Shown here piece after piece: positions 1 to 52,530 of a DNA stretch of 64,000 nucleotides (its first letter is position 1; every line of letters begins with the position of its first letter). The position numbers and the translations under genes are program-made. The notes under the pieces are model-generated. The model saw only the letters and a program-made list of their open reading frames with translations, had not been told where the DNA came from and searched no databases. Source of the DNA: Eledone cirrhosa (Eukaryota); NCBI GenBank assembly GCA_964016885.1, contig OZ024741.1, positions 206,770,001 to 206,834,000 of the forward strand, written 5' to 3'.

Positions 1-399
1 TTCCATTTGGCACTTGTGTGGCATTATCACCACGCTGTAGACGAACACAAATAAACAAACAAACACACAGGCATAAAAAAACCCAAAAATGAATAAGCAT
101 AAGTTTCATTGTAATGTAGTGTTCGAATGTCTGACTTAGTTTTTCCTTTCTCTTCTCTGTCCATCCGCTTGTTTCTCTCTTCATTCTTATTTTCTTTACG
201 TTTTTTTTTGTTTTTTTTGTTTTTTTGCTTTTTTTTGTTTTTTGTTTTTGTTTTTCTCTGTTTGTTTTTCTTGTTTTTTGCTGTTGTTGCTGTGCTGTTT
301 TGGTTTTGATGTTTGTTTTTTCTTTTTTCTTTTGAGTCTATCTATATATTTTGATGCCTTCCTCTTTTTTAGTAAGAATTCTATAATGTGGTGGCAGCA

Positions 400-1168
400 A
401 CTAGCAGAAGCAATGGGAGACAGTAGCGGCGGTAGCGATACTGAGACAGTGGTGGTGGTGATGTCGATACCGAGACAGTGGTGGTGGTGATGTGATCGTA
501 TTATTGTAGTGATGGTGTTGTAGCGGTGTGAGCAATGAAGGAGTGGTGGGGGCGGTGATGGTGGGATAGTGGTAGTAATGATGGCAGCAGTGATGGTGTT
601 GTTGTAGCGGTGGTAGCAATGAAGGACTGATGTCCGTTCGGTGAATCTATGGGGTTAGTCGCGTATATGTGTGTTGACCTAAATTCCCTTAATGTTGGGA
701 TTAAACAGTTTGTTAAGACTTGGGACAATAATAATAGTATTTATTATTATCCTTATTATGTTAAGATTGGTTGTGGTGGTGGTGAAATTGCCGTTATCTG
801 GCTGTTGTGTTTAGTGTACACAGAGAGGTGATGGGGTAGGTGGTGTATCTAGTTTCTGGTGTTGGTGAGATTGGTGTTGTTTGGCTGTTCTATATAGTGT
901 AGACAGAGGAGGAGGGGGGGGGTCTTCTTCCATTTATAGCCATTTTCTGTTTTGAATATACAATGTACAATACAAAGTTGAATATTTGAATATTTGAGCC
1001 TTATAACAATATATTTTGGGTCCGAATTTTTTTGGGGCTCAAGCCGGGTGCTTTACGTAGCATTTGTACTAAGAGTTGTTATTTCACAAATGATTTAAAT
1101 ATGTTAAAAATTCAAAACTTACGGGAGCGATTTCATGACCTTCTACCACCTCGTGCGTCTTCTTCCCT
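400..1168 (-). mobile_element. 5' leader of a Dong-like unit (partial; continues out of window or diverges left of ~400)
   Basis: Homologous to 5480-5954 and 10350-10920, including the terminal AGGGAAGAAGACGCACGAGGTGGTAGAA on the minus strand, next to (TAA)n. Confidence 0.7.
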
Positions 1169-1196
1169 TTATTATTATTATTATTATTATTACAGT

Positions 1197-4100
1197 TGCA
1201 TTTATCTTGCTTTATGTTCATACGAGTTATCACCAAGTCACAACCAGTGACCTCAAGAGACAACAAGGTCCGCCATGTTCAAGAAAGAACATACATATTC
1301 ACACATGCATCTTTAGTGTTTAGACTTGTGATGTACTTATATTGACAGAATCTTCCTTAGTATATGGGCAGTTCCCATTAATACTATCTTTTATATTTCC
1401 CCTATACGCGGGTTTCCTGGGATTTGCGATATGTAATCATTAGACCCCTTAGGTATCATTCCCAGAGCGCCTACAACCACTGGTATTGTTTTAGTTCTCA
1501 ATTTCCACATTTTTCCAATTTCTATCTCCAGGTCCTTATACTTGCTCAATTTTTCAAATGTTTTTATAGATACATTCTTGTCTATTGGAACAGACATATC
1601 AATTAGCAGGCATACCCTCTTTTGAAAGACTTTCAATATTATATCAGGTCTGTTTGCATCTATTTTTCGGTCTGTTTGGATGCTAAAGTTCCACAAGATT
1701 GAGATGTGATCTTTTTCAAGTATGGGAGGTGGTTGATGCTCCCACCAATTCTTTTGATGGGGCAGGTCAAAATGCTTACACATTATCCAATGTATGTATT
1801 GTGCAGCTCTGTCATGCCTGTTTAGGTATTCGGTTGGAGCTATAGGACTGCACATTGAAATTATATGGTCAATGGTCTCTGGTTGTTTTTTGCATACACG
1901 GCATATGGGCTGCACCCATTTTTTATTATGTTGGCTTGGTAATTTTTTGTTGGAGGACACTGATCTTGTGCCGATATAATCAGTCCTTCAGTCTCCGATT
2001 TCAGTCCAGAGGATGCCAACCACTGATGGGTTAAAGTTTTGTCAACATCAGGATTGTTAGCTCGCTCTGGGTATTTTCCATACAGAGGCTTTTCTTGCCA
2101 TTTCTTAGCCAGTTTCTGTAGCAGTTCTTTCTTTCCAGTTACTTTTACCTGCTTTGCTTTTTCTGTGTTTTCCATTTCAGCAGTAAATGGGACTTCTGAA
2201 ATTTGTAGTCCATTACTGTATCTTTGTGCATCTTTTGTAATGGAATATGATCTTTTGATGCTTTCGTGTTTCAAAACGAGTTTGATCATCCAATCATGTG
2301 ATTCCCTTAGATATGTAGATAATGCAATTGTTGCAGTTTTCAACGCAATGTCTAACTGGATTAACCCACGTCCTCCTTCTTTCCTAGGGAGATATATTCT
2401 ATCTATATCTGCCTTAGGGTGATGCATTCCGTGCATGGTTAAGAATTTTCGAATTTTTGTATTGAGCCTACGGATCTCTGTGCTTGACCAGTTGATGACA
2501 TTGTATGGCAAGCGTGTTTATGGCATCGATCCTATTCCTTGCATTCAATTCCGTTCTTAAGATTGCGCTTACTCTGCGGTAACATTCCTTCCTTATCCTT
2601 TCCCTCATTGTCGATTGTTTGATTCCGTCTCCTTCACAAACACCTAGATATTTGTAAGTTTTTTCTTGATCAAGTTCTCTTATCACGTTCCCCCGATCAA
2701 GATTAATGTCTGAACTCTTCAGCAGCTTTCCTCTGGTGAACGTTGCTTTGGAGCATTTATCTAGTCCAAACTCCATTTTAATGTCATCACTGAACTGCTC
2801 CACAGTGGATAATAGCCCTTGCAATTGTTCATCATTTTTTGCAAATAGTTTCACGTCATCCATGTAGAACAGGTGATTAATGGTTTTGTCATAGACTTTA
2901 TATCCATGTTTTGTTTCATTGAGCATTTTACTTAATGGTATAAGTGCGATGCAGAATAAAAGCGGTGATAAAGAGTCACCCTGAAAAATTCCACAATTAA
3001 TATTAACTTCTCCAGCTTCCAGTGATTTTGTTCCACTATTCAAAAGGAGTGTCGTTTTCCATGTCTTCATACTGAATGACAGAAACCTCCTGACAACGGG
3101 GGATATTTTGAAAATCTCTAAACATTTTTCAATCCAACTGTATCGAATGCTTTTTTATAATCTATCCAAGCAATCGAATGATTTTTGTGTCTATTATAAC
3201 AATCTTCCAGTATCATTTTGTTAACCAGAAGCTGATCCTTACAGCCATATGGGCATCGTTTACACCCTTTCTGCTCAATGGGAAATAGGTCATTTGTTAT
3301 CAGGTGGTCATATGTGTATTCAGTTAGGACTGATGTTAAAATTTTATACATTGTGGTCAAGCAAGTTATCGGTCTGTAATTTTTGGGATTGTTTGTCTCA
3401 TCATTCTTCGGAAGCAGGAATGTAATGCCGTTAACTAGCCATGATGGTATCTTTTCTGGCTCCTTAACTATTTCATTGTAAAGTTGGGCTAACAGCTCTT
3501 GAGACTCTGTGAAGGCATTTATCCAAAAGTTTTGTATTTTGTCTTTTCCTGGGGATTTCCATTTGCTGGTTTTTCTTAGAGCCAAGCGCCACTGTTCAAC
3601 TGTTATATTTTTCCCATATTTGTTCCTCAAGGTGAGCTGTATCTTTCATTTGTCTGTTTATCCATGGGACATGTATGTTATGAACTTTTTCTTCGGCCCA
3701 GATCTTTTCCTAGAATTCTTGCACTTCCTCCTTGATTTAGCAGTTATTGTTGACTTACCAATTTTTCTGTAGAAGTTTCTTTGGTTGTTTTTGAACATAT
3801 TATTGTCCTTATAGAATCTAGATCGTTTTTCAAAGCGCCTTATACGAGCAGCTTTGGCCGACACTTTTTGCTTGATTATTTCTATCAGCATGTCTATGTC
3901 ACATGTTGATTTTATACTGTACTTTTTTTTCAATTTTCTAAGTTTAGTTTGTTTAACATGTTCACCTACTTTATAGTTTGTTAAAATTTCTATGTCAGAT
4001 CGGAGAAGGTTTATTTGGCGATTGATGTTCTCTTGCCAAGTAGATTTCTTGTGGGAATTCTTTTGTTTTTTCATCTTCATTCCACATAAGTGAGTGGCGA

Positions 4101-5954
4101 CTTTAGCCAATGCATAATAGAGATGATTGAAATCAGTAATGTTTAGTTTGACTGTGATGATAATGTTTTTGAGAATTATGTTAGTCTTGTGTATTATCTT
4201 TTGGTTCTGTTTGGAGTTCTGGATCTTAGGGAGGGTGTCTCGTTGCCCCATGTCAGATTCTTTCATTTTCATCCATTCGATCATAATTTCATCCTTCAAG
4301 TTGGCAAGTTCATTCTCATTCATTTCTTTATCATTTACGATCTCATTATTTTCATTTGGAGTTTCATCCTGAGCATGCACTCCCTCCACTTTTTCGATCC
4401 TTTCTTTAATTTGTTCTGTTGCCAGTGATTCCGCCCCAACCCTGGGATTCGAAGTGTTACAGTTTACCTCGTTTTCACTGACACATGTTTCATTTTCCCT
4501 TCGCTGACTTTGTGCTAATAGCTTGATCTGATCAATTTCTATATCAGTTAGTATAATTTTTCTTACAATATTTCTTCGTATATTCGCTAGTTTGTTACTG
4601 TCAATATAGCCTCTGTTTTCGGCATGTTTCTTTTTTTTCAGTTGATATATGTCTGTTCTGTATTCGATGTATTTGATGGGTAGTACATGGCAGTGTAGAA
4701 AGCCTCAAGGACTTCTTTATTATCTTCCCTTGACAATTTTTCTCTCTTTTTCTTTGGATTTCTTGGTGGTGAGCATGGAGGGCCAACAGTAGGAGTATTC
4801 CGGTTATGGGAGGTCTCCAGCTCCGAAGTGATGGGAAGGTTTGAACCATTAGCTGATTTTTCGACCCCAGTCTGGTTCCTCTCTGAGGGACGCGGCCCTT
4901 TTTTACTCGGGTGACGGCTGATCCGGTATGAGATTTTATCAATAGACATTTACTTTATTTTGTCGCGTTTTATCCTTATCCGCCAAGGAGTAATCATTTT
5001 GTGTTACCACTTCTAGAACGAGTGTCAACCAAGACTAGAGGGGTCGTTCTCCCCTAGAGACACGGCTATTCCCCGCCGGCCGCCATCCCGGTATTTCTTG
5101 GTGACGGGGGTTTTCTTTTTGTTGTTTTTTTAAATTGTTATTATCATGAGTGGTTCCTTAATGTGAGCATTGCGTGGCTTAAGAATGAAATTATTAATAA
5201 TTGTCTCCACTCCAGGCACAAGGCCAGCAATCACCCAGTGCATTACAATAATATAATATACTTTTTGCTGTAGTTGCCTGTTATTGTTGCTGGCTACGTC
5301 GGTGGTGGTGCCGGGGCTTTTTATATTGTTGGTGAGGAAGGGGTGAGCCAGCAGTCTCATAGTTGTTGATGTTGACGTTTGGCCGGTGGCCAGGTCACTA
5401 AGTCAATCCATTTATATCTTTTGCTAGCCTCTCCCTTGTCTAGTGATACCGCCACCTTCCCCTTTCTCTCTCAAGTTAACAGGGGAATAGTGGTGGTAGC
5501 AATGAAGGAGTGGTGGCGGCGGCGATGGGATAGTGGTAGCAAGATGATGGATTGGCTGGTGGCGGCGGTGGCGTTGTGGTTACTGGGTTTTGTGATATGT
5601 AGTATCTATGAGTTTGTGTTCGTATATTTAGTGTGATGGGATAGGTGGTGTATCAAGTTTCTGGTGTTGGTGAAATTGCTGTTATTTGGCTGTTCTATAT
5701 AGTGTAGACAGAGGGTGTTTTCTTCCATTTATAACCATTTTCTTTTTTTTAATATAAAATATATAATACAAAATTAAATATTTGAGTGATATAACAATAT
5801 AATATGGATCCGAAATTTTATGGGACTTCATTCGGTGGTTTATGCAACATTTGTACTAAGAATTGTTATTTCACAATTGATTTAAATATGTTAAAAATCA
5901 AAAACTTACGGGAGCGATTTCATGACCTTCTACCACCTCGTGCGTCTTCTTCCC
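1197..5954 (-). mobile_element. R4/Dong-clade non-LTR retrotransposon, copy A (full length, disrupted ORF)
   Basis: RT motifs (NYRPITC, WIDYKKAFD, GIFQGDSLSPLLF, YMDD), CCHC finger (CRVC...ETIDHIISMC), RHD and PD..D restriction-like endonuclease; flanked by (TTA)n at 1169-1192 and 5955-5998. Confidence 0.92.
1339..4949 (-). pseudogene. RT + RLE ORF of Dong copy A, broken into about six frames
   Basis: Consecutive ORF pieces 4638-4949, 3658-4389, 3118-3630, 2468-3070, 1861-2511 and 1391-1960 are collinear with copy B. Confidence 0.9.
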
Positions 5955-5998
<44 letters not shown>

Positions 5999-8900
5999 TG
6001 CATTTATCTTGCTTTATGTTTATACGAGTTATCACCAAGTCACAACCAGTGACCTCAAGAGACAACAAGGTCCGCCATGTTCAAGAAAGAACACACATAT
6101 TCACACATGCATCCTTAGTGTTTAGACTTGTGATGTACTTATATTGACAGGATCTTCCTTAGTATATGGGCAGTTCCCATTAGTACTATCTTTTGTATTT
6201 CTCCTATACGCGGGTTTCCTGGGATTTGCGATAAGTAGTCGTTAGGTATCATTCCCAGAGCGCCTACAACCACTGGTATTGTTTTAGTTCTCAATTTCCA
6301 CATTTTTACAATTTCTATCTCCAGGTCCTTATACTTGCTCAATTTTTCAAATGTTTTTATAGATACATTCTTGTCTATTGGAACAGACATATCAATTAGC
6401 AGGCATACCCTCCTTTGAAAGTCCTTCAATATTATATCAGGTCTATTTGCATCTATTTTTCGGTCTGTTTGGATGCTAAAGTTCCACAAGATTGAGATGT
6501 GATCTTTTTCAAGTATGGGAGGTGGTTGATGCTCCCACCAATTCTTTTGATGGGGCAGGTCAAAATGCTTACACATTATCCAATGTATGTATTGTGCAGC
6601 TCTGTCATGCCTGTTTAGGTATTCGGTTGGAGCTATAGGACTGCACATTGAAATTATATGGTCAATGGTCTCTGGTTGTTTTTTGCATACACGGCATAAT
6701 GGGCTGCACCCATTTTTTATTATGTTGGCTTGGTAATTTTTTGTTGGCAGACACTGATCTTGTGCGGATATAATCAGTCCTTCAGTCTCAGATTTCAGTC
6801 CAGAGGATGCCAACCACTGATGGGTTAAAGTTTTGTCAAAATCAGGATTGTTAGCTCGCTCTGGGTATTTTCCATACAGAGGCTTTTCTTGCCATTTCTT
6901 AGCCAGTTTCTGTAGCAGTTCTTTCTTTGCAGTTACTTTTACCTGCTTTGCTTTTTCTGTGTTTTCCATTTCAGCAGTAAATGGGACTTCTGAAATTTGT
7001 AGTCCATTACTGTATCTTTGTGCATCTTTTGTAATGGAATATGATCTTTTGGTGCTTTCGTGTTTCAAAACGAGTTTGATCATCCAATCATGTGATTCCC
7101 TTAGATATGTGGATAATCCAATTGTTGCAGTTTTCAACGCAATGTCTAACTGGATTAACCCACGTCCTCCTTCTTTCCTAGGGAGATATATTCTATCTAT
7201 GTCTGCCTTAGGGTGATGCATTCTGTGCATGGTTAAGAATTTTCGGATTTTTGTATCGAGCCTACGGATCTCTGTGCTTGACCAGTTGATGACATTGTAA
7301 CTATAGGTTACTACTGGTATGGCAAGCGTGTTTATGGCATCGATCCTATTCCTTGCATTCAATTCCGTTCTTAAGATTGCTCTGACTCTGCGGTAACATT
7401 CCTTCCTTATCCTTTCCCTCATTGTCGAGTGCTAGATTCCATCTCCTTCTCAAACACCTAGATATTTGTAAGTTTGTTCTTGATCAAGCTCTCTTATCAC
7501 GTTCCCCCGATCAAGATTAATGTCTGAACTCTTCAGCAGCTTTCCTCTGGTGAACGTTGCTTTGGCGCATTTATCCAGTCCAAACTCCATTTTAATGTCA
7601 TCACTGAACTGCTTCACAGTGGATAATAGCCTTTGCAATTGTTCATCATTTTTTGCGAATAGTTTCAGGTCATCCATGTAGAACAGGTGATTAATGGTTT
7701 TGTCATAGACTCTATATCCATGTTTTGTTTCATTGAGCATTTTACTTAATGGTATAAGTGCGATGCAGAATAAAAGCGGTGATAAAGAGTCACCCTGAAA
7801 AATTCCACAATTAATGTTAACTTCTCCAGCTTCCAGTGATTTTGTTCCACTATTCAAAAGGAGTGTCGTTCTCCATGTCCTCATACTGAATGACAAAAAC
7901 CTCCTGACAACGGGGGATATTTTGAAAATCTCTAAACATTTTTCAATCCAACTGTGTGGCAAACTATCAAATGCTTTTTTATAATCTATCCAAGCAATCG
8001 ATAGATTTTTGTGTCTATTATGACAATCTTCCAGTATCATTTTGTTAACCAGAAGCTGATCCTTACAGCCATATGAGCCTCGTTTACACCCTTTCTGCTC
8101 AATGGGAAATAGGTCATTTGTTATCAGGTGGTCATATGTGTATTCAGTTAGGACTGATGTTAAAATTTTATACATTGTGGTCAAGCAGGTTATCGGTCTG
8201 TAATTTTTGGGATTGTTTGTCTCATCATTCTTCGGTAGCAGGAATGTAATGCCGTTAACTAGCCATGATGGTATCTTTTCTGGCTCCTTAACTATTTCAT
8301 TGTAAAGTTGGGCTCATGAGACTCTGTGAAGGCATTTATCCAAAAGTTGGGCTCATGAGACTCTGTGAAGGCATTTATCCAAAAGTTTTGTATTTTGTCT
8401 TTTCCTGGGGATTTCCATTTGCTGGTTTTTCTTAGAGCCAAGCGCAGCTGTTCAACTGTTATATTTTCCCATGTTTGTTCTTCAAGGTGAGCTGTTTCTT
8501 TCATTTGTCTGTCTATCCATGGGACATGTATGTTATGAACTTTTTCTTCGGCCCAGATCTTTTCCCAGAATTCTTGCACTTCCTCCTTGGGTGGTATTGA
8601 TTTAGCAGTTATTGTTGACTTACCAATTTTTCTGTAGAAGTTTCTTTGGTTGTTTTTGAACATATTATTGTCCTTATAGAATCTAGATCGTTTTTCAAAG
8701 CGCCTTATACGAGCAGCTTTGGCCGACACTTTTTGCTTGATTGTTTCTATCAGCATGTCTATGTCACATGTTGATCTTATACTGTACTTTTTTTTCAATT
8801 TTCTAAGTTTAGTTTGTTTAACATGTTCACCTACTTTATAGTTTGTTAAAATTTCTATGTCAGATCGGAGAAGGTTTATTTGGCGATTGATGTTATCTTG

Positions 8901-10920
8901 CCAAGTAGATTTCTTGTGGGAATTCCTTTGTTTTTTCATCTACACTCCACATAAGTGAGTGGTGACTTTAGCCGATGCATAATAGAGATGATTTAAGTCA
9001 CTAATGTTTATTTTGTTTGTGATGATAATGTTTTTGAGAATTATGTTAGTCTTGTGTATTATCTTTTGGTTCTGTTTGGAGTTCTGGATCTTAGGGAGGG
9101 TGTCTCGTTCCCCCATGTCAGATTCTTTCATTTTCATCCATTCGATCATAATTTCATCCTTCAAGTTGGCAAGTTCATTCTCATTCATTTCTTTATCATT
9201 TACGATCTCATTATTTTCATTTGGAGTTTCATCCTGAGCATGCACTCCCTCCACTTTTTAGCTCCTTTCTTTAATTTGTTCTGTTGCCAGTGATTCCGCC
9301 CCAACTCTGGGATTCGAAGTGTTACAGTTTACCTCGTTTTCACTGACACATGCTTCATTTTCCCTTCGCTGACTTTGTGCTACTAGCTTGATCTGATCAA
9401 TTTCTATATCAGTTAGTAACTTTTTTCTTACAATATTTCTTCGTATATTGGCTAGTTTGTTACTGTCAATATAGCCTCTGTTTTCGGGATGTTTCTTTTT
9501 CCAGTTGATATATGTTTGCTCTGTATTCGATGTATTTGACGGGTAGTACATGGCAGTGTAGAAAGCCTCAAGGACTTCTTTATTATCTTCCCTTGACCAT
9601 TTTTCTCTCTTTTTCTTTGGATTTCTTGGTGGTGAGCATGGAGGGCCAACAGTAGGAGTATTCCGGTTATGGGAGGTCTCCAGCTCCGAAGTGATGGGAA
9701 GGTTTGAACCATTAGCTGATTTTTCGACCCCAGTCTGGTTTCTCTCTGAGGGACGCGGCCCTTTTTTACCCGGGTGACGGCCGATCCGGTATGAGATTTC
9801 ATCATTAGACATCTACTTTATTTTGTCGCGTTTTATCCTTATCCGCCAAGGGGTAATCTTTTCGTGTTACCACTTCTAGAACGAGTGTCAACCAAGACTA
9901 GAGGGGTCGTTCTCCCCTAGAGACATGGCTATTCCCCGCCGGCCGCCATCCCGGTATTTCTTGGTTACGGGGTTTTCTTTTTGTTGTTTTTTTTAAATTG
10001 TTATTATCATGAGTGGTTCCTTAATGTGAGCATTGCGTGGCTTAAGAATGAAATTATTAATAATTGTCTCCACTCCAGGGACAAGGCCAGCAATCACCCA
10101 GTGCATTACAATAATATAATATACTTTTTGTTGTAGTTGGCTGTTATTGCTGCTGGCTATGTCGGTGGTGGTGCCGGGGCTTTTTATATTGTTGGTGAGG
10201 AAGGGGTGAGCCAGCAGTCCCATAATTGTTGATGTAGACGTTTGTCCGTGGCAAGGTCACCAAGTCAATCTATTTATATCTTTTGCTAGCCTCTCTCTTG
10301 TCTAGTGCTACCACCACCTTCCCTTTTCTCTCTCAAGTTAACAGGGGAATAGTGTCAGTAGCATTGAATGAGTGGTGGCGGCGATGATGGATGTGGTGGG
10401 GCGGTGGCAGCGGTGGTGTTGTGGTTACTGATATAGTATCTATGAGTTTGTGTTCGTATGTTTAATATATATTTTCATTATATTTTGTGCTGACATATTC
10501 CCGTAAAATTTGAATTAAACATTTTTTAAAATTTGAGACAATAATAATAGTAATTATTATTAATATGCCGGTGAAGTTGCCGTTATATTTAGTGTGATGG
10601 GATAGGTAGTGTATCAAGTTTCTGGTGTTGGTGAAATTGAAATTGCCGCTGTTCTATATAGTGTAGACAGAGGGTGTTTTGTTCCATTTATAACCATTTT
10701 CTTTTTTTGAATACAAAATATATAATACAAAATTGAATATTTGAGCGATACAACAATATAATATGGATCCGAAACTTTATGGGACCTCATTCGGTGCCTT
10801 TATGCAACATTTGTGCTAAGAATTGTTCTTTCACAATTGATTTAAATATGTTAAAAATCAAAAAACTTACGGGAGCAATTTCGTGACGTTCTACCACCTC
10901 GTGCGTCTTCTTCCCTATCC
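5999..10920 (-). mobile_element. R4/Dong-clade non-LTR retrotransposon, copy B (full length, disrupted ORF)
   Basis: Highly similar to copy A, with the same termini, flanked by (TTA)n on both sides. Confidence 0.92.
6139..9812 (-). pseudogene. RT + RLE ORF of Dong copy B (about 1200 codons; stops, frameshifts, and a ~39-bp tandem duplication near 8306-8383)
   Basis: ORF pieces 9258-9812, 8940-9254, 8292-8939, 7450-8184 (YMDD) and 6139-7422 (CCHC, PDI..D, EKLSKY). Confidence 0.9.

Positions 10921-10964
<44 letters not shown>
10921..10964. repeat. (TTA)n target microsatellite at the head-to-head Dong/Tx1 junction
   Basis: Pure TTA run; same motif at 1169-1192, 5955-5998, 16871-16909 and 22697-22749. 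Confidence 0.98.
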
Positions 10965-11487
10965 GGCGACCTACGTAGGAAATCGTATTATCGTGAGCTC
11001 CGCAAAGGTTTGTTATTTCCGTTTGTTTAAAAATTGCCATTTATGGAAAATTTTATTGTAAACTGTTTATAAGCACACATACATTGTTTTCCGAAAAGGA
11101 CACCCAAAAAGATTGGGGCCTTGTGCCCAAAATTTTAACTTTTATTATTATCCAAATTTTTTCTTTGAAAAAAAATGGCTAATTCCCCTCTGCACGAAGC
11201 AGCTGAAAGCCTTCCTCACAAAATAACACCTCACACCGACACCACCATTGTAAATGTTACTACGTTTGCCAACACAAAAAAAAATATAAGCAGTAGCAAT
11301 ATTTTAAATTTGTCTCAGGCAGACATTCATTTCCCGCCATTACCAATGACTGCAGGTGTTAAAGCCTCCACCACCACCACCACCGCGACAACCACCACCA
11401 CCACCGCGACAACCACCACCACCACCACCACCACCGCGACAACAGAAACAAAAGAAGAAAAAAAATAAATTAACTCGTGACGTCGAA

Positions 11488-13184
11488 ATGAAATCAAGCA
11501 AAATGGACTCTTCCCCACCAAAGACGACTGACGTCACCACCACCACAACTGAAAATAAAATTAATATTAACGATAGCAACAACAACAACAATGATATTAT
11601 AAAACCGACCCTCAGTTTCGCCATCGTAGCAAAACAATTCGAAGCGTTCACGGTAACTCAAGAAGATTTAGAAAATGCCAAACAAATGGTAAAGAAAGAT
11701 GGGTACAGGGTCAGCCTCACCCCCCACCTAATAAAATGGAGCATCGGCGCCTGTGCACCGTGTCGTATAGAACAATAAATGTAAAATCGCGCCGAGTGGA
11801 ACGGGCATCCGAGTCCCAAATCCAAAAAGCTTTGGGACATGTGTGGGCAAGAAAAACCCACATCAGACGTGGGCAAAAGTATGGAACCGTGGATGTGTTC
11901 TTTGAAACACCAGAGGAGGCTAGAGAACACTCCATGGCCCCATTAAAAAGTGACGACCTCACACTCGTCCCAAGCTATTGTGGCCAGAGACTCGTAAAGA
12001 TCAGGGTGACCCACGTTCCACCGGCCATCGAAATTCCCTGGCTAATAGCGGCTGTCCTCGCCGGCATCGAAGCCAACACGAAAATAATAGCAGTAGCAAA
12101 AGAAAAGCAGGAAAACTGGTCCGGATCTGGGATGGAGCTCCTGATCCAAGCGGACCAAAAAAGCATTGAGGAGATCCCAGAGGTAATAGACCTCAACGAC
12201 GGCAGCCACCTCACGGTAATTGTCGAGGGCAGAAGACCTAGGTGTGTCGTTTGTGGTGAAGGAACCCACCTAAGAGCTTTCTGCCCTCAGGCTAAAAGGT
12301 TGAGGCCACCTCTCCTACCCACCCCAGTGACACAACCATCAACACCACCAGTAGCAGAAATGGCAGCAACAACTGTAGCAGCAACAACAGAAGCAACTAT
12401 AACAGCAACAACCCCAGCAACAGTAGCAAAACCAACACCACTACCACCACCAGCAAAACCAACACCACCACCACCCAACGCTTCAGAACTAGCACCAGCG
12501 CCTACACCATCCACCACACCACAACCAAAACTAACGGCTGTGGAGGATTTTCCACTCCCCGGCCTATCACAACTGGAGACAGATTGTGACGACGAGGAGT
12601 GGGAAACGATATCCGGAAAAAAAAAAAGAAACCAAAAAAGAAAAAATTCTCTTCCTTCCCCATCCAAAAACAAAATACAGAGGGAAACAAATAAACTAAG
12701 AAACAAAAAGGTTAGGACAGATATGCCACCATCCACACCAGCATCACCAACCCCATCAACCCAAACACCAAACCCATCACCATCATTATCCCCAGCACCA
12801 CCATCACCTACACCACAAAAGTCACCAAAAAGCGAAACAGAAACAAACCCACAACAAACGCAAACAAAACAAAACAACCAAAACGATACACACTACACAG
12901 CATTAAATTTGAACAACAAGCAATTATTACACTACATCCAACACAACACCAGCATCACAGAAAAAGACTACACAACAACCCCAAAATTCACACCACCTCC
13001 ACACATACAAATCACTCGCATCACACAGAAAACGTACATGACACTAAAACAAAAATTCCCCAAAGACATCGGAGATTTCCGACAAGCACTCTCCAGGAGG
13101 ATTTATAAGGACATCCTTCCTGAGGAGGCCACAAGCAGTGAAAAGGATGGAAAAGCCGTCCTTCCCCTACGAGAAGTAAGGTAA
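11488..13184 (+). pseudogene. Tx1 ORF1 (gag-like, CCHC zinc knuckle, Pro/Thr-rich tail); 1-nt frameshift near 11720
   Basis: CVVCGEGTHLRAFC = C-x2-C-x4-H-x4-C; copy 2 reads through the frameshift position in one frame (RLTPPPNKMKHRRL). Confidence 0.85.
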
Positions 13185-13218
13185 GTGGTCTTTCCCATCT
13201 TTTCCACTCCTTTTCAAC

Positions 13219-16200
13219 ATGACCTCACTCAGAATAGGCAGCATAAATGCGCGTGGCTTGGGGTCGTCATGGAAGCAGGGCCACCTGCTCAACGACCTCA
13301 GGTCACTAAACATAGATGTAGTGGCCATCAGCGAGACCAGAATCTCCGAAGCACAGGCTTTCGCACCGATCTTCGGCGGCTACGATGTGTACGCATCTCC
13401 CAGCCGTCCGGGATCGGGGGGAGGTGTTGCTGTGCTTTTTCGGAGAGGTTTGGATCTTGCCATACGGGCCATCTTCCTGGACCCAGAAGGTAAGTTGGTG
13501 GTGCTGGACGTGACCAGCGGAGACGGGCAAGCTTTCAGGTTAGTGGCCGTCTATGCCCCGACAGGAGCAGGGCGGCCTGATTTCTTCCGGCGTCTGGAGA
13601 CCTTTCTTGGAACGTCCCGCTCTTTAGTGTTAGTGGGCGACTGGAACGGGATCTTAGATGCACGCTGGGATTGTGTGGGATTAGTGGATAGGGAAGGAGG
13701 GTGCAAGAGTGTCACCAACCTGCTCAGACGTTTTGAACTGTCTGACAGGTACCGAATGGATTTCCCGAATGTACCAATGTGGACTTGGACAAATCGCATA
13801 GGGTCATCCAGATCATATCTAGATAGAGTATTTTGTAGGGAAATAGATAGGTCTAGCATAGGCTGTCCACAATTCAAGATAGTCAGCTACACGGACCACA
13901 AATTCGTGATCTGTGTGCTTGACTTAAATAGGCTTCATAGACGAGGACCCGGCTACTGGAAGCTAAACGCGTCCTTACCAGCGCGCAAGGCCTACAGAGA
14001 CCGGATTAGCGAACTAGTTAAGCGGGCGTTGACGGGGGCCATCGTCAACAACAAGTGGTGGTTTGCTCTGAAAAGAGCAATTAGAATAGAGTCCATTAGG
14101 TTTAGTAAGACTTTAGCAATAGAGAAAAATAGAGCAGAGGGAGAATTAGTTAGAAAATTAGATGAGGCGCTTAGCAAAGGCATCGCGACCGACGTACTTG
14201 CGGCGAAATTGGCCCTTGACCAATTCTTCAATGCAAAGCACGAAGGTTGCGTTGTCAGAGCTAGGGTGCGTGCTCTCAGATACGAGGGGACGAAAGCCGT
14301 TCAATGGGCTCGAGTGGCGGAGGCGCGTCGTGGCAACAAAGCCACGATCCGGTCTTTGGTGGACCACGACGGGCGCATGCTACTCGATCCCGGGCAAATG
14401 TGTGAAGCTTTTCAGCGACACTTCGCTCAACTGTTCGGGGGCAGTGGCGGGCCGGATCGAGGGATGGACTTTAGTGTCTACCTCGACGGACTGCCGCGGC
14501 TTTCGGCCACTGAGGCGGAGTGTTGCGAAAAGCCGATAACAACCGCTGAAGTACGGGATGCAATGACTAGTTGCACAAGGGGTAAATCGCCTGGTTTGGA
14601 TGGTCTGCCCTATGAACTTTACGTACAAATGCCAAACTTGTTCGGAGGCCTCTTGGCGGACGTCTACTGCAACTGGCAACAGAACGGGAGAATTCCCAGC
14701 TCTGTGAGCCGAGGAGCGGTGGCGCTGCTGAGAAAGGATCCGAACAAGGGGGATAACATAGATAATTTTAGGCCCATAACTCTGCTAAACACAGAGTTCA
14801 AGATTTTGGCCAAGGTGCTAGCAAAGAGGTTGGCGCTTGTCGTTGGTGGTCTGGTGGGAGAGGCACAGACATGCGCCATTCCCGACAGATCCATCCACGA
14901 CAACCTCCACCTCATGCGATACATCGTAGAGAGGGTAGCTAGGGAACCTGGCACGGGTGGGTCTTTGATCAATTTAGATCAGTCGAAAGCCTTCGATAGG
15001 GTCGACCATCGTTACCTAGCGGCAGTCCTGAGGGCGGCTGGCTTTGGGCCCGTCTTCAGAGGCTGGATCGCTGCCATGCACAGCGACATCTGCTCTGTAG
15101 TGAGAGTGAACGGTCACCTTTCGGAACCGTTCAACATCATGCGCTCGGTCCGCCAAGGATGTCCCCTCTCGTCCCTATTGTACGTATTGACTCTCGAGCC
15201 ATTACTGCACAAACTGGAGACGTTGAGGGGGGTCCCGCGCGAACTAGGATGCGGAAGATCCGTGTCAGCATATGCCGACGATGTCACCGTAGTGGTGTCG
15301 AACGCCAAACACATCGAGGCGATCGGCACTACACTAAGAGAATACGAAGCGGTGACAGGAGCAATGATCAACCAGGAAAAGTCAGTGGGCCTGCAGCTCG
15401 GCACCTGGAGAGGCAGGTCCATGCCGTCCAACAGCGTCGTCGGGCGCTGGACGGACGGACCGGTTAAATTGCTAGGGGTCTGGTTCGGTCCAGACCTCCA
15501 GACGGACAAAAACTGGGACGAGGTGACGAGCAGGGTGGCTTCTCTCACCCAGAAATGGGCCGAGAGGAAGCTATCCCTGAAAGGTCGAGCGGAGGTGGCG
15601 AATGCGTACATCGCATCCGTCATCTACTACCGCCTGACCGTCGTACCTTGTCCTAAGCCCCGCCTGACTGCGCTGGAGCGTTTGCTCTTTCGCTTCTTGT
15701 GGAAGGGACGCGCTCCGATGGTCAGGCGGTCCATCTGCTGTCAACACCCGCTACGTGGAGGGCTGGGCATGCCGTGGCTGATGATGCGCAGACACGCGCT
15801 CAGGCTACGACATCTCCACCTCCTCCTCGACGGTGATCAGGTGTGGTCGCCGTTTGCAAGACACGTTTTTCCCCAGCTCGTCTCCTTGACGGAGCTGCAG
15901 TCCTGGGTCAAGCGAAGACCGAGAGGGAGCGCTTGGAGACTGGAATGTCTTCAGGCGCTCACAGCCCTCGACCAATCGGGCAATGTGATCGGTGGAAACT
16001 CCACCTTGGCGTTCTATAGGGGATTAGTGGAGGGGAAGAGCGACGACGTACTTGGAGAAACTCTAGGCGTCGACGAAAATCAACTAGCCAATCTCTTCGG
16101 AAGGACTTTCGGGCCGGGGCCTATGGACAACTTCCAGAAATCCCTGGCCTGGCAGTGCTACCGAGGAGCTTTGCCAGTTCGGGATAAACTCTACAGGCAT

Positions 16201-16278
16201 GGAGGTGCCGTCAGCCGGGCATGTCCGAGATGCGCGCAGGGCGACGAAACCGTCCTGCACGCACTCGTCCATTGCTGA
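13219..16278 (+). CDS. Tx1 ORF2: AP endonuclease + reverse transcriptase + C-terminal zinc finger; C-terminus (to 16627) shifted out of frame by an ~11-nt deletion
   Basis: SINARG, ISET, VYAP, GDWN, YLDR, TDH (APE); WKLN, GKSPGLDGLP, NFRPITLLN, DQSKAFDRV, QGCPLS, YADD (RT); CPRC..ETVLH. Confidence 0.93.
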   Translation: MTSLRIGSINARGLGSSWKQGHLLNDLRSLNIDVVAISETRISEAQAFAPIFGGYDVYASPSRPGSGGGVAVLFRRGLDLAIRAIFLDPEGKLVVLDVTSGDGQAFRLVAVYAPTGAGRPDFFRRLETFLGTSRSLVLVGDWNGILDARWDCVGLVDREGGCKSVTNLLRRFELSDRYRMDFPNVPMWTWTNRIGSSRSYLDRVFCREIDRSSIGCPQFKIVSYTDHKFVICVLDLNRLHRRGPGYWKLNASLPARKAYRDRISELVKRALTGAIVNNKWWFALKRAIRIESIRFSKTLAIEKNRAEGELVRKLDEALSKGIATDVLAAKLALDQFFNAKHEGCVVRARVRALRYEGTKAVQWARVAEARRGNKATIRSLVDHDGRMLLDPGQMCEAFQRHFAQLFGGSGGPDRGMDFSVYLDGLPRLSATEAECCEKPITTAEVRDAMTSCTRGKSPGLDGLPYELYVQMPNLFGGLLADVYCNWQQNGRIPSSVSRGAVALLRKDPNKGDNIDNFRPITLLNTEFKILAKVLAKRLALVVGGLVGEAQTCAIPDRSIHDNLHLMRYIVERVAREPGTGGSLINLDQSKAFDRVDHRYLAAVLRAAGFGPVFRGWIAAMHSDICSVVRVNGHLSEPFNIMRSVRQGCPLSSLLYVLTLEPLLHKLETLRGVPRELGCGRSVSAYADDVTVVVSNAKHIEAIGTTLREYEAVTGAMINQEKSVGLQLGTWRGRSMPSNSVVGRWTDGPVKLLGVWFGPDLQTDKNWDEVTSRVASLTQKWAERKLSLKGRAEVANAYIASVIYYRLTVVPCPKPRLTALERLLFRFLWKGRAPMVRRSICCQHPLRGGLGMPWLMMRRHALRLRHLHLLLDGDQVWSPFARHVFPQLVSLTELQSWVKRRPRGSAWRLECLQALTALDQSGNVIGGNSTLAFYRGLVEGKSDDVLGETLGVDENQLANLFGRTFGPGPMDNFQKSLAWQCYRGALPVRDKLYRHGGAVSRACPRCAQGDETVLHALVHC

Positions 16279-16869
16279 CTTGTGGGTTTATGTCGAACAC
16301 CTGCTGTCACGTGTAGGACCTATCCAGCTATCAGCTGAGTCCATCGTGAGGATTGCCCCGCCCCCTTCCTTTAGCCTGGAAGGGCAGGCAGTTTTTATCT
16401 GTCTGGTGGCCATAGCGAAAGAGATAGTATGGTGGACACGTTTGAAAGGGCTGAAGACGAGCACTTACCTCTTCGGTGATGCCCTGATTAACTTTTTCAA
16501 ATTTCATTTGAAAAGGAAAATCAGGGTAGAGAGGGAAGTGCTCTCTTCCCAGCATTTTGTTGAAAGATGGGTGAGAGAAGCAAGTATGGCCCGAATGAAT
16601 GGGCCTTCTCTGAGTATGTGTCTGTAAATTAAAGGTGGAAAACTGGGAGAGGGCACTTGCCCTGGTGGACAGGGCCACTGTGGTCTTTTAATGGGCTTTC
16701 TCCACAAATGTCCCTTGGAAGTCTCCCCCCTATTGGGGAATTTTTCTTTGTTATTTTATTTCAACCTCTGTTTTTTTACACGCAGAAATGCCCATTTGTA
16801 CCGTCCTGTATTGTCCTGTACTGTCCTTAATGTCTACTTTATGTGAACCCTTGTGGTTAATAAAGAAAA

Positions 16870-16909
<40 letters not shown>

Positions 16910-19900
16910 GGCGACCTACGTAGGAAATCGTATTATCGTTTGCTCCGCAAAGGTTTGTTGTTTTCAGTTGTTTAAATTTGCCATTTATGGAAATGTTTTA
17001 TTGCACATACATTGTTTTCTGAAAAGGACACTCAAAAAGATTGGGGTCTTGAGCCCAAAATTTAAACATTTATAATTATCAAACAAAAATTTCTTTGAAA
17101 AAAAAATCATGGACGATTCACAGTCACACCTTCCTCACAAACTAACACCTCACACCGACACGCCGATTGTAAATATTACTACGTTTGCCAACACTAAAAA
17201 TATAAGCAGTAGCAATAATTTAAATTTGTCTCATGCAGACGTTCATTTCCCGCCATTACCAATGACTGCAGGTGTTGAAGCCGCCACCCAACCACCACCA
17301 CAACGACAACAGAAATAAAATAAAAAAAAAAAATTATCTCGTGACATTGAAATGGATTCACCCAAAATCGACTCTTCCCCACCGAACACCACTGACGCCA
17401 CTACTACCACAACTGAAACTAAAAATAACAATAACAAAAATAACGATAACAAAAACACCAACAACAACAATGAGAATAAGAAAACCACCCTGTCTTTTGC
17501 CAGAGTAGCAAAAAAGTGCGAAGCAATCCAGGTAACTCAGGAGGAATTAGATGAGGCCAAGCGAATGGCAAAGAAAGATGGGTACAGGGTCAGACTCACG
17601 CCCCCACCTAATAAAATGAAGCATCGGCGCCTATGCACTGTGTCTTATCGGATTAACATAAAATCGCGCCGAGTGGAACGAGCATCCGAGTCTCAAATCC
17701 AAAAAGCTTTGGGACATGTGTGGGCAAAAAAAACCCACATCAGACGTGGGCAGAAATATGGAACCGTAGACGTGTTCTTGGAAACACCACAGGAGGCCAG
17801 GGAACACTCCATGGCCCCATTAAGATGTGACGACTTCACACTCGTCCCAAGCTATTGTGACCCACGTTCCACCGGCCATCGAAATTCCCTGACTAATGGC
17901 TGCCGTCCTCGCCGGAATCGAGGCCAACACCAAGATAATCGAAATAGCGAAAGAAAAGAAGGAAAACTGGTCCGGATCTGGAATGGAGCTCCTGATCCAA
18001 GCGTACCAAAAAAGCATTGAGGAGATCCCAGAGGTAATAGACCTCATTGATGGCAGCCACCTCACCGTAATCGTCGAGGGCAGAAGGCCTAGGTGTGTCG
18101 TTTGTGGTGAAGGAACCCACCTAAGGGCTTTCTGCCCTCAGGCTAAAAGGTTGAGGCCTCCTCTCTTACCCACCCCAGTGACTCAACCATCAACACCACT
18201 AGCAGCAGAAATGGCCGCAACAACTGCAGCAGCAACAACAGAAGCAACTGTAACAGCAACAACCCCAGCAACAGTAACAAAACCAACACCACCACCACCA
18301 CCACCCAACGCGCCGGAACTAGCACCAGCGCCTACACCATCCACCACGCCACAACCAAAACCAACGCCTGTGGAGGATTTTCCACTCCCCGACCTATCGC
18401 CGCAACTGGAGACAGATTGTGACGACGAGGAGTGGAAAACTGTATCAGGAAAAAAGTAAAAAAAAGAAAATGAAACCAAAAAAGAAAAAAATCCCCTTCC
18501 TTCCCCCTCCAAAAACAAAATACAGAGGGAAACAAATAAACTATCAAACAAAAAAGTTAGGACAGCTACGCCACCATCCACACCAGCATCACCAACCCCA
18601 TCACCACAAACACCAACACCATCACCATCACCCAACACCACCATCACCAACACCACAAAAGTCACCAAAAAGCGAAACAGAAACAAACCCGCAACAAACG
18701 CTAACAAAACAAAACATCCAAATCGATACACACTACACAGCATTAAATTTGAACAACCAATTATTACACTACATCCAACACAACACCAGCATCACAGAAA
18801 GAGACTACACAACAACCCAAAAGTTCACACCACCTCCACACATACAAATCACTCGCATCACACAGAAAACGTACACGACACTAAAACAAAAATTCCCCAA
18901 AGACATCGGAGAATTCCGACAAACACTCTTCAGGAGGATTTATAAGGACATCCTTCCGGAGGATGGCCACAAGCAGTGAAAAGGATGGAGAAACCATCCT
19001 TCCTCTACAAGAAATAAGGTAAGTGGTATTTCCCATCTTTTCCACTCTATTTCAACATGACCTCAGTCAGAATAGACAGCATAAAAGCGCGTGGCTTGGG
19101 GTCGTCATGGAAGCAGGGCCACATGCTCAACGACCTCAGGTCACTAAACATAGATGTAGTGGCCATCAGCGAGACCAGAATCTCCGAAGCACAGGCCTTC
19201 ACACCGATCTTCGGCGGCTACAATGTGTACGCATCTCCCAGCTGTCCTGGATCCGTGGAGGAGTTGCTGTGCTTTTTCGGTGAGGTTTGGATCTCGCCAT
19301 ACGGGCTATCTTCCTGGACCCAGAGGGTAAGTTGATGGTGCTGGACTTGACCAGCGGAGACGGGCAAGCTTTCAAGCTAGTGGCCGTCTATGCCCCGACA
19401 GGAGCAGGGCGGCATGATTTCTTCCGGCGTCTGGAGATCTTTCTTGGAACGTCCCACTTTTTAGTGTTAGTGGGCGACTGGAACGGGATCTTAGATGCAC
19501 GCTGGCACTGTGTGGGATTAGCGGATAGGGGAAGGGTGCAAGAACCTCACCAACCTGCTCAGGAGTTTTGAACTGTCTGACAGGTACCGATTGGATTTCC
19601 CGAATGTGCCAATGTGAACTTGGACAAATCGCATAGGGTCATCCAGATCATATCTAGATAGAGTATTTTGTAGGGAAATAGATAGGTTAGCATAGGCTGT
19701 CCACAATTCAAGATAGTCAGCTACACAGACCACAAATTCGTGATTAGTGTGTTTGACTTAGATAGGCTTGATAGACGAGGACCCGGCTACTGGAAGCTAA
19801 ACGCGTCCCTACCAGAGCGCAAGGCCTACAGAGACCGGATTAGCGAACTAGTTAAGCGGGCGTTGACGGAGGCCATCGTCAATATCAAGTAGTGGTTTGC

Positions 19901-22694
19901 TCTGAAAAGAGCGATTAGAATAGAGTCCATTAGGTTTAGTAAGGCTTTAGCAATAGAGAAAAATAGAGCAGAGGGAGAACTAGTTAAAAAATTAGACGAG
20001 GCGCTTAGCAAAGGCATCGCGACCGACGTACTTGCGGCGAAATTGGCCCTTGACCAATTCTTCAATGGAAAGCACGAAGGCTGCGTTGTCAGAGCTAGGG
20101 TGTGTGCTCTCAGACACGAGGGGACGAAAGCCGTTCAATGGGCTCGAGTGGCGGAGGCGCGTCGTGGCAACAAAGACACGATCCGGTCTTTGGTGGACCA
20201 CGACGGGCGCATGCTACTCGATCCCGGGAAAATGTGTGAAATTTTTCAGCGACATTTAGCACAGCTGTTCGGGGGCAGCGGCGGCGGGCCGGATCGAGGG
20301 ATGGACTTTAGTGTCTACCTCGACGGACTGCTGCGGCCCACGGTCACTGAGGCGGAGTGCTGCGAAAAGCCTATAACAGCCGCTGAAGTACGGGAGGAAA
20401 TGACTGACTGCACAAGGGGTAAATCGCCTGGTTTGGATGGTTTCCTCTATGAACTTTACGGACAGATGCCAGACTTATTCGGAGGCCTCTTGGCGGACGT
20501 CTACTGCAACTGGCAACAGAACGCGAGAATTCCCAGCTCTGTGAGCCGAGGAGCGGTGGCGCTGCTGAGACAGGATCCGAACAAGGGGGATAACATAGAT
20601 AATTTCAGGCCCATAACTCTGCTAAACACAGAGTTCAAGATTTTGGCCAAGGTGCAAGCAAATAGGTTGGCGCTTGTCATTGGTGGTCTGGTGGGAGAGG
20701 CGCAGACATGCGCCATTCCCGACAGATCCACCCACGACAACCTCCACCTCATGCGATACATCGTAGAGAGGGTAGCTAGGGAACCTGGCACGGGTGGGTC
20801 TTTGATCAATTTAGATCAGTCGAAAGCTTTCGATAGGGTCGACCATCGTTACCTAGCGGCATTCCTGAGGGCGGCTGGCTTTGGGCCCGTCTTCAGAGGC
20901 TGGATCGCTGCCATGCACAGCGACATCTGCTCTGTGGTGATGTGAACCTTTCGGAACCGTTCAACATCATGTTCCCGGTCCACCAAGTATGTCCCCTCTC
21001 GTCTCTCTTGTACGTATTGTCTCTCGAGCCATTACTGCACAAACTGGAGACGTTGAGGGGGGTCCCGCGCGAACTTGGAGGCGGAAGATCCGTGTCAGCA
21101 TATGCGAACGATGTCGCCGTAGTGGTGTCGAACGCCAAACACATCGAGGCGATGGGCACTACACTAAGAGAATACGAAGCGGTGACAGGAGCAATGATCA
21201 ACCAGGAAAAGTCAGTGGGCCTGCAGCTCGGCACCTGGCGAGGCAGGTCCATGCCGTCCAACAGCGTCGTCGGGCGCTGGACGGACGGACCGGTTAAATT
21301 GCTAGGGATCTGGTTCGGTCCAGACCTCCAGACGGACAAAAACTGGGACGAGGTGACGAGCAGGGTGGCTTCTCTCACCCAGAAATGGGCCGAGAGGAAG
21401 CTATCCCTGAAAGGTCGAGCGGAGGTGGCGAATGCGTACATCGCATCCGTCATCTACTACCGCCTGACCGTCGTACCTTGTCCTAAGCCCCGCCTGACTG
21501 CGCTGGAGCGTTTGCTCTTTCGCTTCTTGTGGAAGGGACGCGCTCCGATGGTCAGGCGGTCCATCTGCTGTCAACACCCGCTACGTGGAGGGCTGGGCAT
21601 GCCGTGGCTGATGATGCGCAGACACGCGCTCAGGCTACGACATCTCCACCTCTTCCTCGACGGTGATCAGGTGTGGTCGCGGTGTGCTAGACGCGTCTTT
21701 CCCCAGCACATTTCCTTGACGGAGCTGCAGTCCTGGGTCAAGCGAAGACCGAGAGGGAGCGCCTGGAGACTGGAATGTCTTCAGGCGCTCACAGCCCTGG
21801 ACAAATCGGGCAATGTGATCGGTGGAAACTCCACCATGGCGTTCTATAGAGGATTAGTGGAGGGGAAGAGCGACAGCGTTCTTGGAGAAACTCTAGGCGT
21901 CTACGAAAATCAACTAGCCAATCTCATCGGAAGAACTTTCGGGCCAGGGCCTATGGACAACTTCCAGAAATCCCTGGCCTGGCAGTGCTACCGAGGAGCT
22001 TTGCCAGTTCGGGATAAACTCTACAGGCATGGAGGTGCCGTCAGCCGGGCATGTCCGAGATGCACGCAGGACGACGAAACCGTCCTACACGCACTCGTTC
22101 AGTGTCCGAGCATTGCTGACTTGTGGGTTTATGTCGAACACCTGCTGTCACGTGTAGGACAGATCCAGCTATCAGCTGAGTCCATCGCGAGGATTGCCCC
22201 GTTCTCTTCCTTTAGCCGGGAAGGGCAGGCAGTTAGTTTTTATCTGTCTGGTGGCCATGGCGAAAGTGATAGTATTGTGGACACGTTTGAAAGGGCTGAA
22301 GACGAGCACTTACATCTTCGGTGATGCCCTGATTGACTTTTTAAAATTTCAATTGAAAAGGAAAATCAGGGTAGAGAGGGAAGTGCTCTCTTCCCAGCAT
22401 TTTGTTGAAAGATGGGAGAGATACTTTGAGTATGTGTCTGTAAATTAAAGGTGGAAAACTGGGAGAGGGCACTTGCCCTGGTGGTCAGGGTCACTGTGGC
22501 TTTTTAATGGGCTTTCTCTACGAATGTCCCTCGGAAGTCTCCCCCCTATTGGGGAATTTTTTCATTGTTCTATTATTACATCCTCTGTTTCTTGTTTTTT
22601 TTTACACGCAGAAACGCCCATTTGTACCGCCCTGTATTGTCCTGTACTGTCCTTAATGTCTACTTTATGTAAACCCTTGTGGTTAATAAAGAAA

Positions 22695-22696
<2 letters not shown>
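16910..22696 (+). mobile_element. Tx1-clade retrotransposon, copy 2 (more decayed)
   Basis: Same termini as copy 1; fragmented ORF1/ORF2; YADD mutated to YAND; AATAAA at 22685-22690 followed by (ATT)n. Confidence 0.92.
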
Positions 22697-22788
<92 letters not shown>

Positions 22789-32230: not shown

Positions 32231-32269
<39 letters not shown>

Positions 32270-32273
<4 letters not shown>

Positions 32274-37243: not shown

Positions 37244-39077
<1,834 letters not shown>

Positions 39078-52106: not shown

Positions 52107-52530
52107 AATATTTTAGTTTGATGTAAGGCATGTCGAGAATAATAATAATATAATATTAATAATAATTGTTTCTACTTTAGGCACAAGGCCAGCAATTGCC
52201 CAGTGCATTACTGGTACTTTATTTTATCGACCCCGTAAGGATGAAAGGCAAAGTCAACCTCGGCGGGATTTGAACTCAGATCGTAAAGGGACGTAACTAT
52301 GCTGGAAAGCATGGCGTCCGACCCTCTACCGATACTGCCAATCCACCGCCCTTATTAATAATAATAATGTCCGTTTACAATTGTTTCGCTACACCATATA
52401 TTTCTGGATCAAATGATTATATATCATTATTGATCTGGTTCAGTTGAAAATAATTAACATAGGTAGAAATAGAGCAGCTCATCGGAACTTCAAAAGGAAT
52501 ATAAATTAAAATAAGGAAAGAATGTTACAT
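52107..52530 (-). mobile_element. Third copy of the 48.7 kb PLE 3' end
   Basis: Direct homology to 48760-48985. Confidence 0.85.
52167..52350 (-). mobile_element. tRNA-derived SINE with 13-bp TSD TATTAATAATAAT
   Basis: TSD at 52154-52166 and 52353-52365; empty site at 48791-48820. Confidence 0.9.

Follow-up and report, generated by a model that had tools for sequence, protein, structure and literature searches.

Site-specific LINEs (long interspersed nuclear elements) are usually seen as low-copy residents of ribosomal DNA, small nuclear RNA (snRNA) genes or telomeres. Here, we describe a 64,000-nt stretch of the Eledone cirrhosa genome (contig OZ024741.1, positions 206,770,001 to 206,834,000; hereafter the window), in which LINEs of two unrelated kinds, Dong and Tx1-like, are joined through (TTA)n tracts, together with their relatives across the genome. 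Related systems are compared as they are described in the accessible parts of the papers cited. Dong of silkworm, mosquito and snail targets TAA (PMC3812793), and Dong of Bombyx mori, DongAg, and DongBg of the snail Biomphalaria resemble the Dong elements reported here in having a single open reading frame (ORF) with a reverse transcriptase (RT) and a C-terminal restriction-like endonuclease (RLE) and in lying in TAA repeats in the TAA sense (PMC3812793, PMC3774820). PMC3812793 lists Dong among the elements with an apurinic/apyrimidinic endonuclease (APE), whereas the sequences here show an RLE. Unlike the known cases, at least two lineages (Dong-1 and Dong-2, 49% identical in the RT and 35% in the C-terminal part) and a more distant third share the target and the 5' end here, in thousands of copies. 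The microsatellite targets of the Tx1 clade are (TC)n, (TTC)n, (TTCC)n and (TTTC)n, and Koshi, Kibi and the crocodilian Tx1 families are two-ORF APE elements in microsatellites (PMC4494074), as is the Tx1-like lineage described here. This likeness is one of architecture. The target here, (TTA)n, is absent from the Tx1 targets that the text of that paper gives, and an RLE element uses it too.

TRAS and SART of B. mori are two site-specific LINE families that occupy one short repeat, that of the telomere, in opposite orientation and in arrays (PMC10088271); SART1Bm requires three repeats (PMC7265360). The Dong/Tx1 system works like TRAS/SART, but is not a member of it: both of those families are R1-clade APE elements at telomeres, whereas here an RLE element faces an APE element in a dispersed interstitial repeat. 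The enzyme pairing is that of Utopia (RLE) and Keno (APE), which share a site in U2 snRNA genes (PMC4640811). In that case, the two elements have identical 3' flanks, meaning the same orientation, and occupy a low-copy gene; here, the orientations are opposite and the target is a dispersed, self-renewing microsatellite, renewed with each insertion.

We consider it highly probable that Dong and Tx1-like LINEs sit by the thousands in (TAA)n in fixed opposite orientations, likely because each nicks and primes on a different strand, and that every insertion would leave fresh repeat on both sides. In the window and the 20 kb of upstream DNA examined with it (negative coordinates), the array is approximately 30.7 kb long, beginning 8 kb upstream of the window and ending at position 22,748. 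Its six elements, all full-length, belong to three families (Dong-1 with three copies, Dong-2 with one and Tx1-like with two), and seven (TTA)n tracts stand between and around them (Table 1). An earlier note on this DNA had described a 22-kb array of three minus-strand Dong-type and two plus-strand Tx1 units. The domain motifs of both classes, the five (TTA)n tracts at the positions given there and the retained 5' ends of all five window units were found. The three Dong units are indeed Dong-type, on the minus strand and head-to-tail, but the third is of another family, Dong-2, and the array reaches further than supposed, with a fourth Dong and two more TTA tracts upstream. No other runs of six or more TTA or TAA units occur in the 64 kb, and none of the window copies has an intact reading frame. 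Dong-1 copies A and B differ by 3.6% and Tx1-like copies a and b by 6.8%, in both pairs with many multi-base indels, so the array is not the assembly duplication that the earlier note had asked about; the only assembly gap (200 N, 42290-42489) lies beyond it. The same divergence between neighbours rules out, for this array, tandem dimers from a single template-jumping event. Judged by identity to the nearest sampled copies, the central pair is the youngest (99.3-99.7%) and the outer copies are older (94-99%), indicating that the array grew by serial insertion of elements that differ in age and family.

Table 1. Elements and tracts of the array, and copies of a short interspersed nuclear element (SINE); positions are those of the window, and negative positions lie upstream of it
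Feature	Position	Strand	Remarks
Fourth Dong of the array (Dong-1)	-7981 to -3628		Upstream of the window, with two more TTA tracts
Dong-2, 5' part (R4 clade, RLE)	1..1168	-	Extends upstream to about -3599, 4,767 bp in all; RT 49% identical to Dong-1
(TTA)8 tract	1169..1192		Joins the 5' end of Dong-2 to the 3' end of Dong-1 copy B
Dong-1 copy B	1193..5954	-	Full length, ORF in pieces
(TTA)14 tract	5955..5998		Dong head-to-tail junction
Dong-1 copy A	5999..10920	-	Full length and young, with 99.3-99.5% identity to the closest copies sampled; RT and RLE motifs present, ORF fragmented
(TTA)14 tract	10921..10964		Head-to-head junction of Dong-1 copy A and Tx1-like copy a
Tx1-like copy a	10965..16870	+	Full length, young (99.5-99.7%)
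(TTA)12-13 tract	16871..16909		Tx1 head-to-tail junction
Tx1-like copy b	16910..22696	+	Full length; older (94-97%) and 6.8% different from copy a
(TTA)17 tract	22697..22748		Closes the array; then (TA)n to 22788
SINE, about 190 bp	52166..52353	-	Tx1-like 3' end; target duplications starting with ATTATT
Further SINE copies	28196-28371; 51029-51234; 58033-58751		Three copies in the last interval, two of them abutting

We investigated the target and polarity of both kinds of element across the 2,996-Mb genome, using exact-pattern counts of ends, which are lower bounds for young subfamilies. Among 2,486 Tx1-like 5' ends, 2,300 (92.5%) directly followed (ATT)3 and none followed (TAA)4, with no matches for the controls; the other ends gave 11,231 matches for Tx1 3' (control: 70), 4,997 for Dong-1 3' and 1,654 for Dong 5'. 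In addition, we sampled the 30 best-matching loci for each of the four ends, which were all 100% matches and hence represent young copies. Here, matches were kept at identities of at least 88% (5') or at least 85% (3'), and six loci were left out of the end counts (L010, L052, L061 and L062, the array itself; L059 and L100, overlaps), while L012/L013 and L067/L068, which look like segmental duplicates, were retained. Dong 5' ends lay in TAA in 77 of 90 cases (34/37 full-length, 43/53 truncated) and never in TTA, and Tx1 5' ends lay in TTA in 41/41 full-length and 8/10 truncated cases and never in TAA. The 3' ends agreed, with 79 of 86 Dong ends in TAA (1 in TTA, 1 in both, 5 in neither) and 55 of 56 Tx1 ends in TTA. 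Even the divergent relatives held their 3' phase (Dong, 105/106; Tx1, 74/76; not de-duplicated). Thus, copies mostly lacking the repeat at the 5' flank, or random polarity, the outcomes that the earlier note had named as fatal to its proposal, were not what we found. Two apparent polarity exceptions proved to be Dong-2 copies: L014, an RT cross-match, is in the expected orientation, and L019 carries a 5' inversion. The repeat at the 5' end of truncated copies must come from the target, because the element's own RNA 5' end cannot supply it. In the sampled loci, the shortest tract 5' of a Tx1 had 5 units. A hand count of the first 100 of the 1,654 Dong 5' ends gave 86 with the repeat within 20 nt, 9 with (GAA)n slippage, 3 with duplicated 5' ends and 2 others; the (GAA)n and duplicated first bases often seen at Dong 5' joins may reflect slippage in second-strand priming. 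In the raw reads of a different sample of this species, 1,114 pass from the Dong 5' end into TTA, and Logan contigs labelled as two other species contain both 5' ends. At L064, L079 and L181, 5'-truncated elements are joined straight to another element without a tract, possibly through target deletion at the 5' junction or a later deletion.

The minus-strand units of both Dong families encode one ORF with an RT followed by a CX2CX8HX4C (CCHC) motif, RHD and a PD-(D/E)xK RLE, and no APE. The ORF matched RVT_1, its best PDB matches were R2 proteins with the RLE stretch aligned, and the catalytic motifs of the endonucleases are readable in both the Dong and the Tx1-like sequences. We take an N-terminal motif of the Dong ORF to be R4-type. 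Their predicted domain architecture, together with insertion into (TAA)n in the TAA sense, would place these elements in the Dong/R4 clade; the matches included no named reference sequence. The 5' end common to Dong-1 and Dong-2 comprises approximately 330 bp at 80% identity only (window 828-1168 versus 5623-5954 and 10584-10920), a pattern that could reflect promoter capture. Whereas B. mori Dong has a 5' hepatitis delta virus (HDV)-like ribozyme (PMC3774820), our own descriptor, used without a positive control, gave no match to such a ribozyme in four Dong and three Tx1 5' ends; a first weak match consisted of G-U pairs only and was lost when Watson-Crick pairing was demanded. Rfam searches returned four weak matches far under gathering scores and nothing relevant. 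L026, L055 and L049 hold one or more distant Dong lineages (41-52% amino-acid identity), likewise TAA-flanked in sense. A SINE 3' fragment is embedded in the Dong-1 5' untranslated region (UTR) at window 10058-10109 and at the matching place in copy B, and is present in the sampled copies. A Dong-2 copy with a 5' inversion (L163:8978-10000) and a Dong 5' fragment that lies inverted about a palindromic TTA/TAA tract (L179:1667-1964) may be products of twin priming or fold-back.

In Tx1-like copy a, ORF1 carries a CX2CX4HX4C zinc knuckle and ends at 13184, and ORF2 (APE, RT and zinc finger) starts at 13219, its frame being broken near the C terminus. The domains found in ORF2 were PF03372, PF00078 and PF13966 (APE, RT and a C-terminal zinc motif), and the best PDB matches of the APE were the L1 endonuclease and its chimeras (E = 7e-6). 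The 3' end (AATAAAG...C) abuts the tract without poly(A), and a polyadenylation-like AATAAA stands a few bases ahead of the repeat. The knuckle was found in both ORF1 variants; a CCHC zinc knuckle in ORF1 is typical of Tx1 and, to our knowledge, absent from vertebrate L1 ORF1. The label "Tx1-like" is one of predicted architecture; none of the 34 homologues retrieved, nor any member of their clusters, bears a clade name. As for target preference, 92.5% of the 2,486 5' ends compares with the more than 20% of flanks asked for in PMC4494074. A second variant (L123, G000:C1:83748101-83758100; also L172) combines a different 5' half, comprising another 5' UTR and an ORF1 of 38-55% identity, with a 95.6% identical ORF2. 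Together with the shared Dong 5' end, this suggests swapping of 5' modules, which residence in arrays perhaps helped.

An abundant SINE shares approximately 20 nt of its 3' end with the Tx1-like elements; its head is presumably tRNA-like. In shuffle tests, the SINE 3' motif resembled three Tx1 ends with p = 0.005-0.008 and a fourth with p = 0.04, against 0.35 and 0.47 for Dong ends. Of 40 copies whose 3' end is intact, 19 had a direct repeat of at least 9 nt, 16 of these repeats beginning with ATTATT and the clear cases being 13-19 nt long. In a hand count, a motif made from both 3' ends, and hence not an independent test, gave 57 matches, 25 of them Tx1 and 32 SINE ends, with no third LINE body. 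From this sequence likeness, the SINE was likely mobilised by a Tx1-like element. Similarly, SINEU of crocodilians shares the target preference of Tx1-Mar, which is inferred to mobilise it (PMC4494074); here, the likeness lies in the 3' end and the ATTATT sites. The accessible parts of PMC3747384 and PMC4758252 contain no link between Tx1 and an octopus SINE. We also considered SINE tails as a long-tail source of new tracts and rejected this, as these tails amount, for the most part, to the ATTATT with which the duplication opens; the SINE therefore duplicates the motif rather than creates it. Dong and Tx1 copies were located in SINE tails with their usual polarity (L006, L093, L114).

In target-primed reverse transcription (TPRT), the first nick falls on the strand complementary to the sense strand of the element. 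Dong would therefore prime on the (TTA)n strand, and the Tx1-like protein on the (TAA)n strand at 5'-AAT^, pairing with a few AUU bases of the RNA end. Since some Tx1 3' ends reach other repeats after one or two ATT units, the AUU match that comes from the RNA is probably no more than a short one. If the Tx1-like element mobilises the SINE, the nick would fall at 5'-AAT^purine, and the SINE duplications of 13-19 nt suggest that approximately 5-6 repeat units are copied per Tx1 insertion, in agreement with the 5-unit minimum upstream of Tx1 copies. Each insertion would turn one target into two, and chains would therefore grow. The earlier note had proposed that an RLE and an APE converged on opposite strands of one trinucleotide repeat; the shared repeat and the fixed opposite polarity hold genome-wide, and the opposite-strand nicks would follow from TPRT geometry.

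Polarity could also be set by pairing between RNA and primer alone, with both endonucleases nicking AT-rich or TAA DNA on either strand and extension confined to the strand pairing with a terminal UAA or AUU of the RNA, in which case there would be no convergence on opposite strands. We regard this as a real possibility, if a somewhat doubtful one. The 3' junctions in one fixed phase, the degenerate TAA-like units inherited at the 3' end of Dong-2 subfamilies, whose RNA end thus includes repeat-like bases, and the ATTATT at which the SINE duplications begin are all compatible with it. Conversely, the RNA match is short, since some of the Tx1 3' ends have no more than ATT ahead of unrelated repeats, and a short match alone would not account for the strong bias toward long tracts (at least three units in 92.5%). 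The nick and the short match probably both act to lock polarity. That the tracts are tails made by the elements themselves, through RT slippage or repeat carried by the RNA, with insertion untargeted and clustering passive, is very improbable and already largely refuted: the tract is present at the 5' break of truncated copies, it is present at head-to-head junctions where no tail faces it, and nearly all young 5' ends have another element across the tract. It would find some favor at L172 (2860-2980, 9007-9130; n = 1), where a solo Tx1 lies in one unit of a short tandem duplication and the empty unit has approximately 5 imperfect ATT units against 12 + 18 in the filled one, so that tracts may lengthen at or after insertion. 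We attach next to no probability to the array being an assembly or tandem segmental duplication, given the 3.6-6.8% divergence of its units, its three families and different subfamilies and its gap-free sequence, and the recurrence of the same junction types hundreds of times in the genome.

The earlier note had also raised bipolar arrays, possibly with a back-to-back bidirectional promoter, and an account in which such arrays arise by bias or purpose can be framed accordingly: the tract at a full-length 5' end, by open chromatin or a shared two-way promoter, would be re-targeted, and the families would sort outward from a head-to-head center. We counted neighbors across the tract, with L014 and L019 reassigned and matches more than 200 bp away called far. 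Tx1 5' ends were preceded by a Tx1 3' end in 15/29 and a Dong 5' end in 14/29 cases, and Dong 5' ends by a Tx1 5' end in 14/29 and a Dong 3' end in 12/29; Tx1 3' ends were followed by a Dong 3' end in 16/30 and by Tx1 in 3 near and 4 far or weak cases, and Dong 3' ends by a Dong 5' end in 15/30 and a Tx1 3' end in 6/30. All four junction types were thus observed, and head-to-head junctions were about as common as tail-to-tail ones (28/58 versus 22/60, p = 0.26). Exact full-length head-to-head junctions numbered 14 against approximately 24 expected, and tail-to-tail ones 325; both patterns see only tracts shorter than about 46 nt and head-to-head tracts are longer, so the 14 indicate no enrichment rather than depletion. 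Moreover, the families are often interleaved within arrays, as at L164-L169, full-length copies also occur alone (L170, L172), and the majority of copies are 5'-truncated. Neither the bipolar layout nor, from junction counts only, the bidirectional promoter therefore stands as a rule, and such a promoter at the head-to-head junction is unlikely. Biased bipolar growth would fit the two youngest window copies, which flank the central tract with the older ones outside, and the second Tx1 5' variant, which abuts 6/29 young Dong-1 5' ends across short tracts, but on balance we consider it improbable. By our preferred reading, the bipolar shape of the window is one outcome of serial insertion, in which the two youngest copies entered the central tract.

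The sites are interstitial and dispersed over the chromosomes. In 39 evenly spaced 10-kb stretches (390,000 bp) of the five largest contigs (C1-C5), the Dong and Tx1-like families cover 39,371 bp (10.1%; bootstrap 4-17%), and 14 of the 20 tracts of at least six units abut these elements. Several observations weigh against our reading, beginning with this share, which rests on 11 of the 39 stretches, from contigs apparently richer than average. From the positions of the listed 5' ends, large contigs look approximately 1.5 times richer than average, and the genome-wide share is probably nearer 5-7%. Also, 186 of the 2,486 Tx1 5' ends lack a perfect (ATT)3, and approximately a tenth of the first 100 listed Tx1 3' ends reach other sequence or repeats after one or two ATT units (hand count), so Tx1 specificity is strong, not absolute. 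An old Tx1 3' end at L158 has TAA before TTA, and 10 of the 53 truncated Dong ends have no tract. There is, in addition, a weak 5'-side bias: neighbors were present more often at 5' than at 3' ends (46/57 versus 36/58, p = 0.04) and were slightly younger (median 98.35 versus 97.1%, p = 0.057). This would also suit biased bipolar growth, but the 5' samples were drawn from other chromosome regions than the 3' samples, and we treat it as a lead only. Finally, nick site and duplication length are unreadable in a pure repeat, and our estimate of them is borrowed from the SINE, whose link to Tx1 is itself only likely.

Elsewhere in the window, an ORF at 61304-62146 (minus strand) contains a Pif1 helicase 2B domain (E = 2e-17), with more open frames up to the window end, and may belong to a Helitron-type element. 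In the interval 31340-58751, dispersed pairs of repeats of 200-940 bp, direct as well as inverted, are numerous (e.g., 31340-32276 with 38131-39030; 52537-53177 with 53400-54040).

Each ingredient of this system has a precedent, and what appears new is the TTA-targeting Tx1 lineage and the scale. A TTA-specific Tx1, sharing between Dong and Tx1, or such a scale was not found in the literature searched; Repbase Reports, most subscription papers and the supplements of PMC4494074 lay outside the search, and may include a TTA-specific Tx1. In this large genome, a dispersed repeat of three bases is common to two unrelated endonucleases, on a scale of several percent of the DNA. Two systems with one substrate and opposite outcomes open a long-standing question to testing, namely whether site and orientation are set by the nick of the enzyme or by the pairing of RNA and primer. 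For such genomes, markers based on TAA microsatellites and the annotation of repeats would be affected as well. We hold as evenly poised the broader proposal that the size of this genome has one of its main drivers in a self-renewing (TAA)n ecosystem. In it, several Dong lineages on one strand, and an undescribed TTA-specific Tx1 with a mobilised SINE on the other, would duplicate their target at every insertion, hold most long TAA tracts and approximately 5-10% of the 3-Gb genome, and exchange 5' modules in arrays.

Dong-R4 and L1-Tx1 are among the most recently active LINE groups in Octopus vulgaris and have expanded in coleoids; no target is described in the accessible parts of these sources (PMC13282606, PMC8967140), and the word "target" is absent from the main text of PMC13282606. 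For octopods, our results would offer a target rule for both groups. If the broader proposal is true, the actively jumping Dong-R4 and L1-Tx1 LINEs of octopuses would be site-specific, and the landing sites of their germline and somatic insertions could be predicted.

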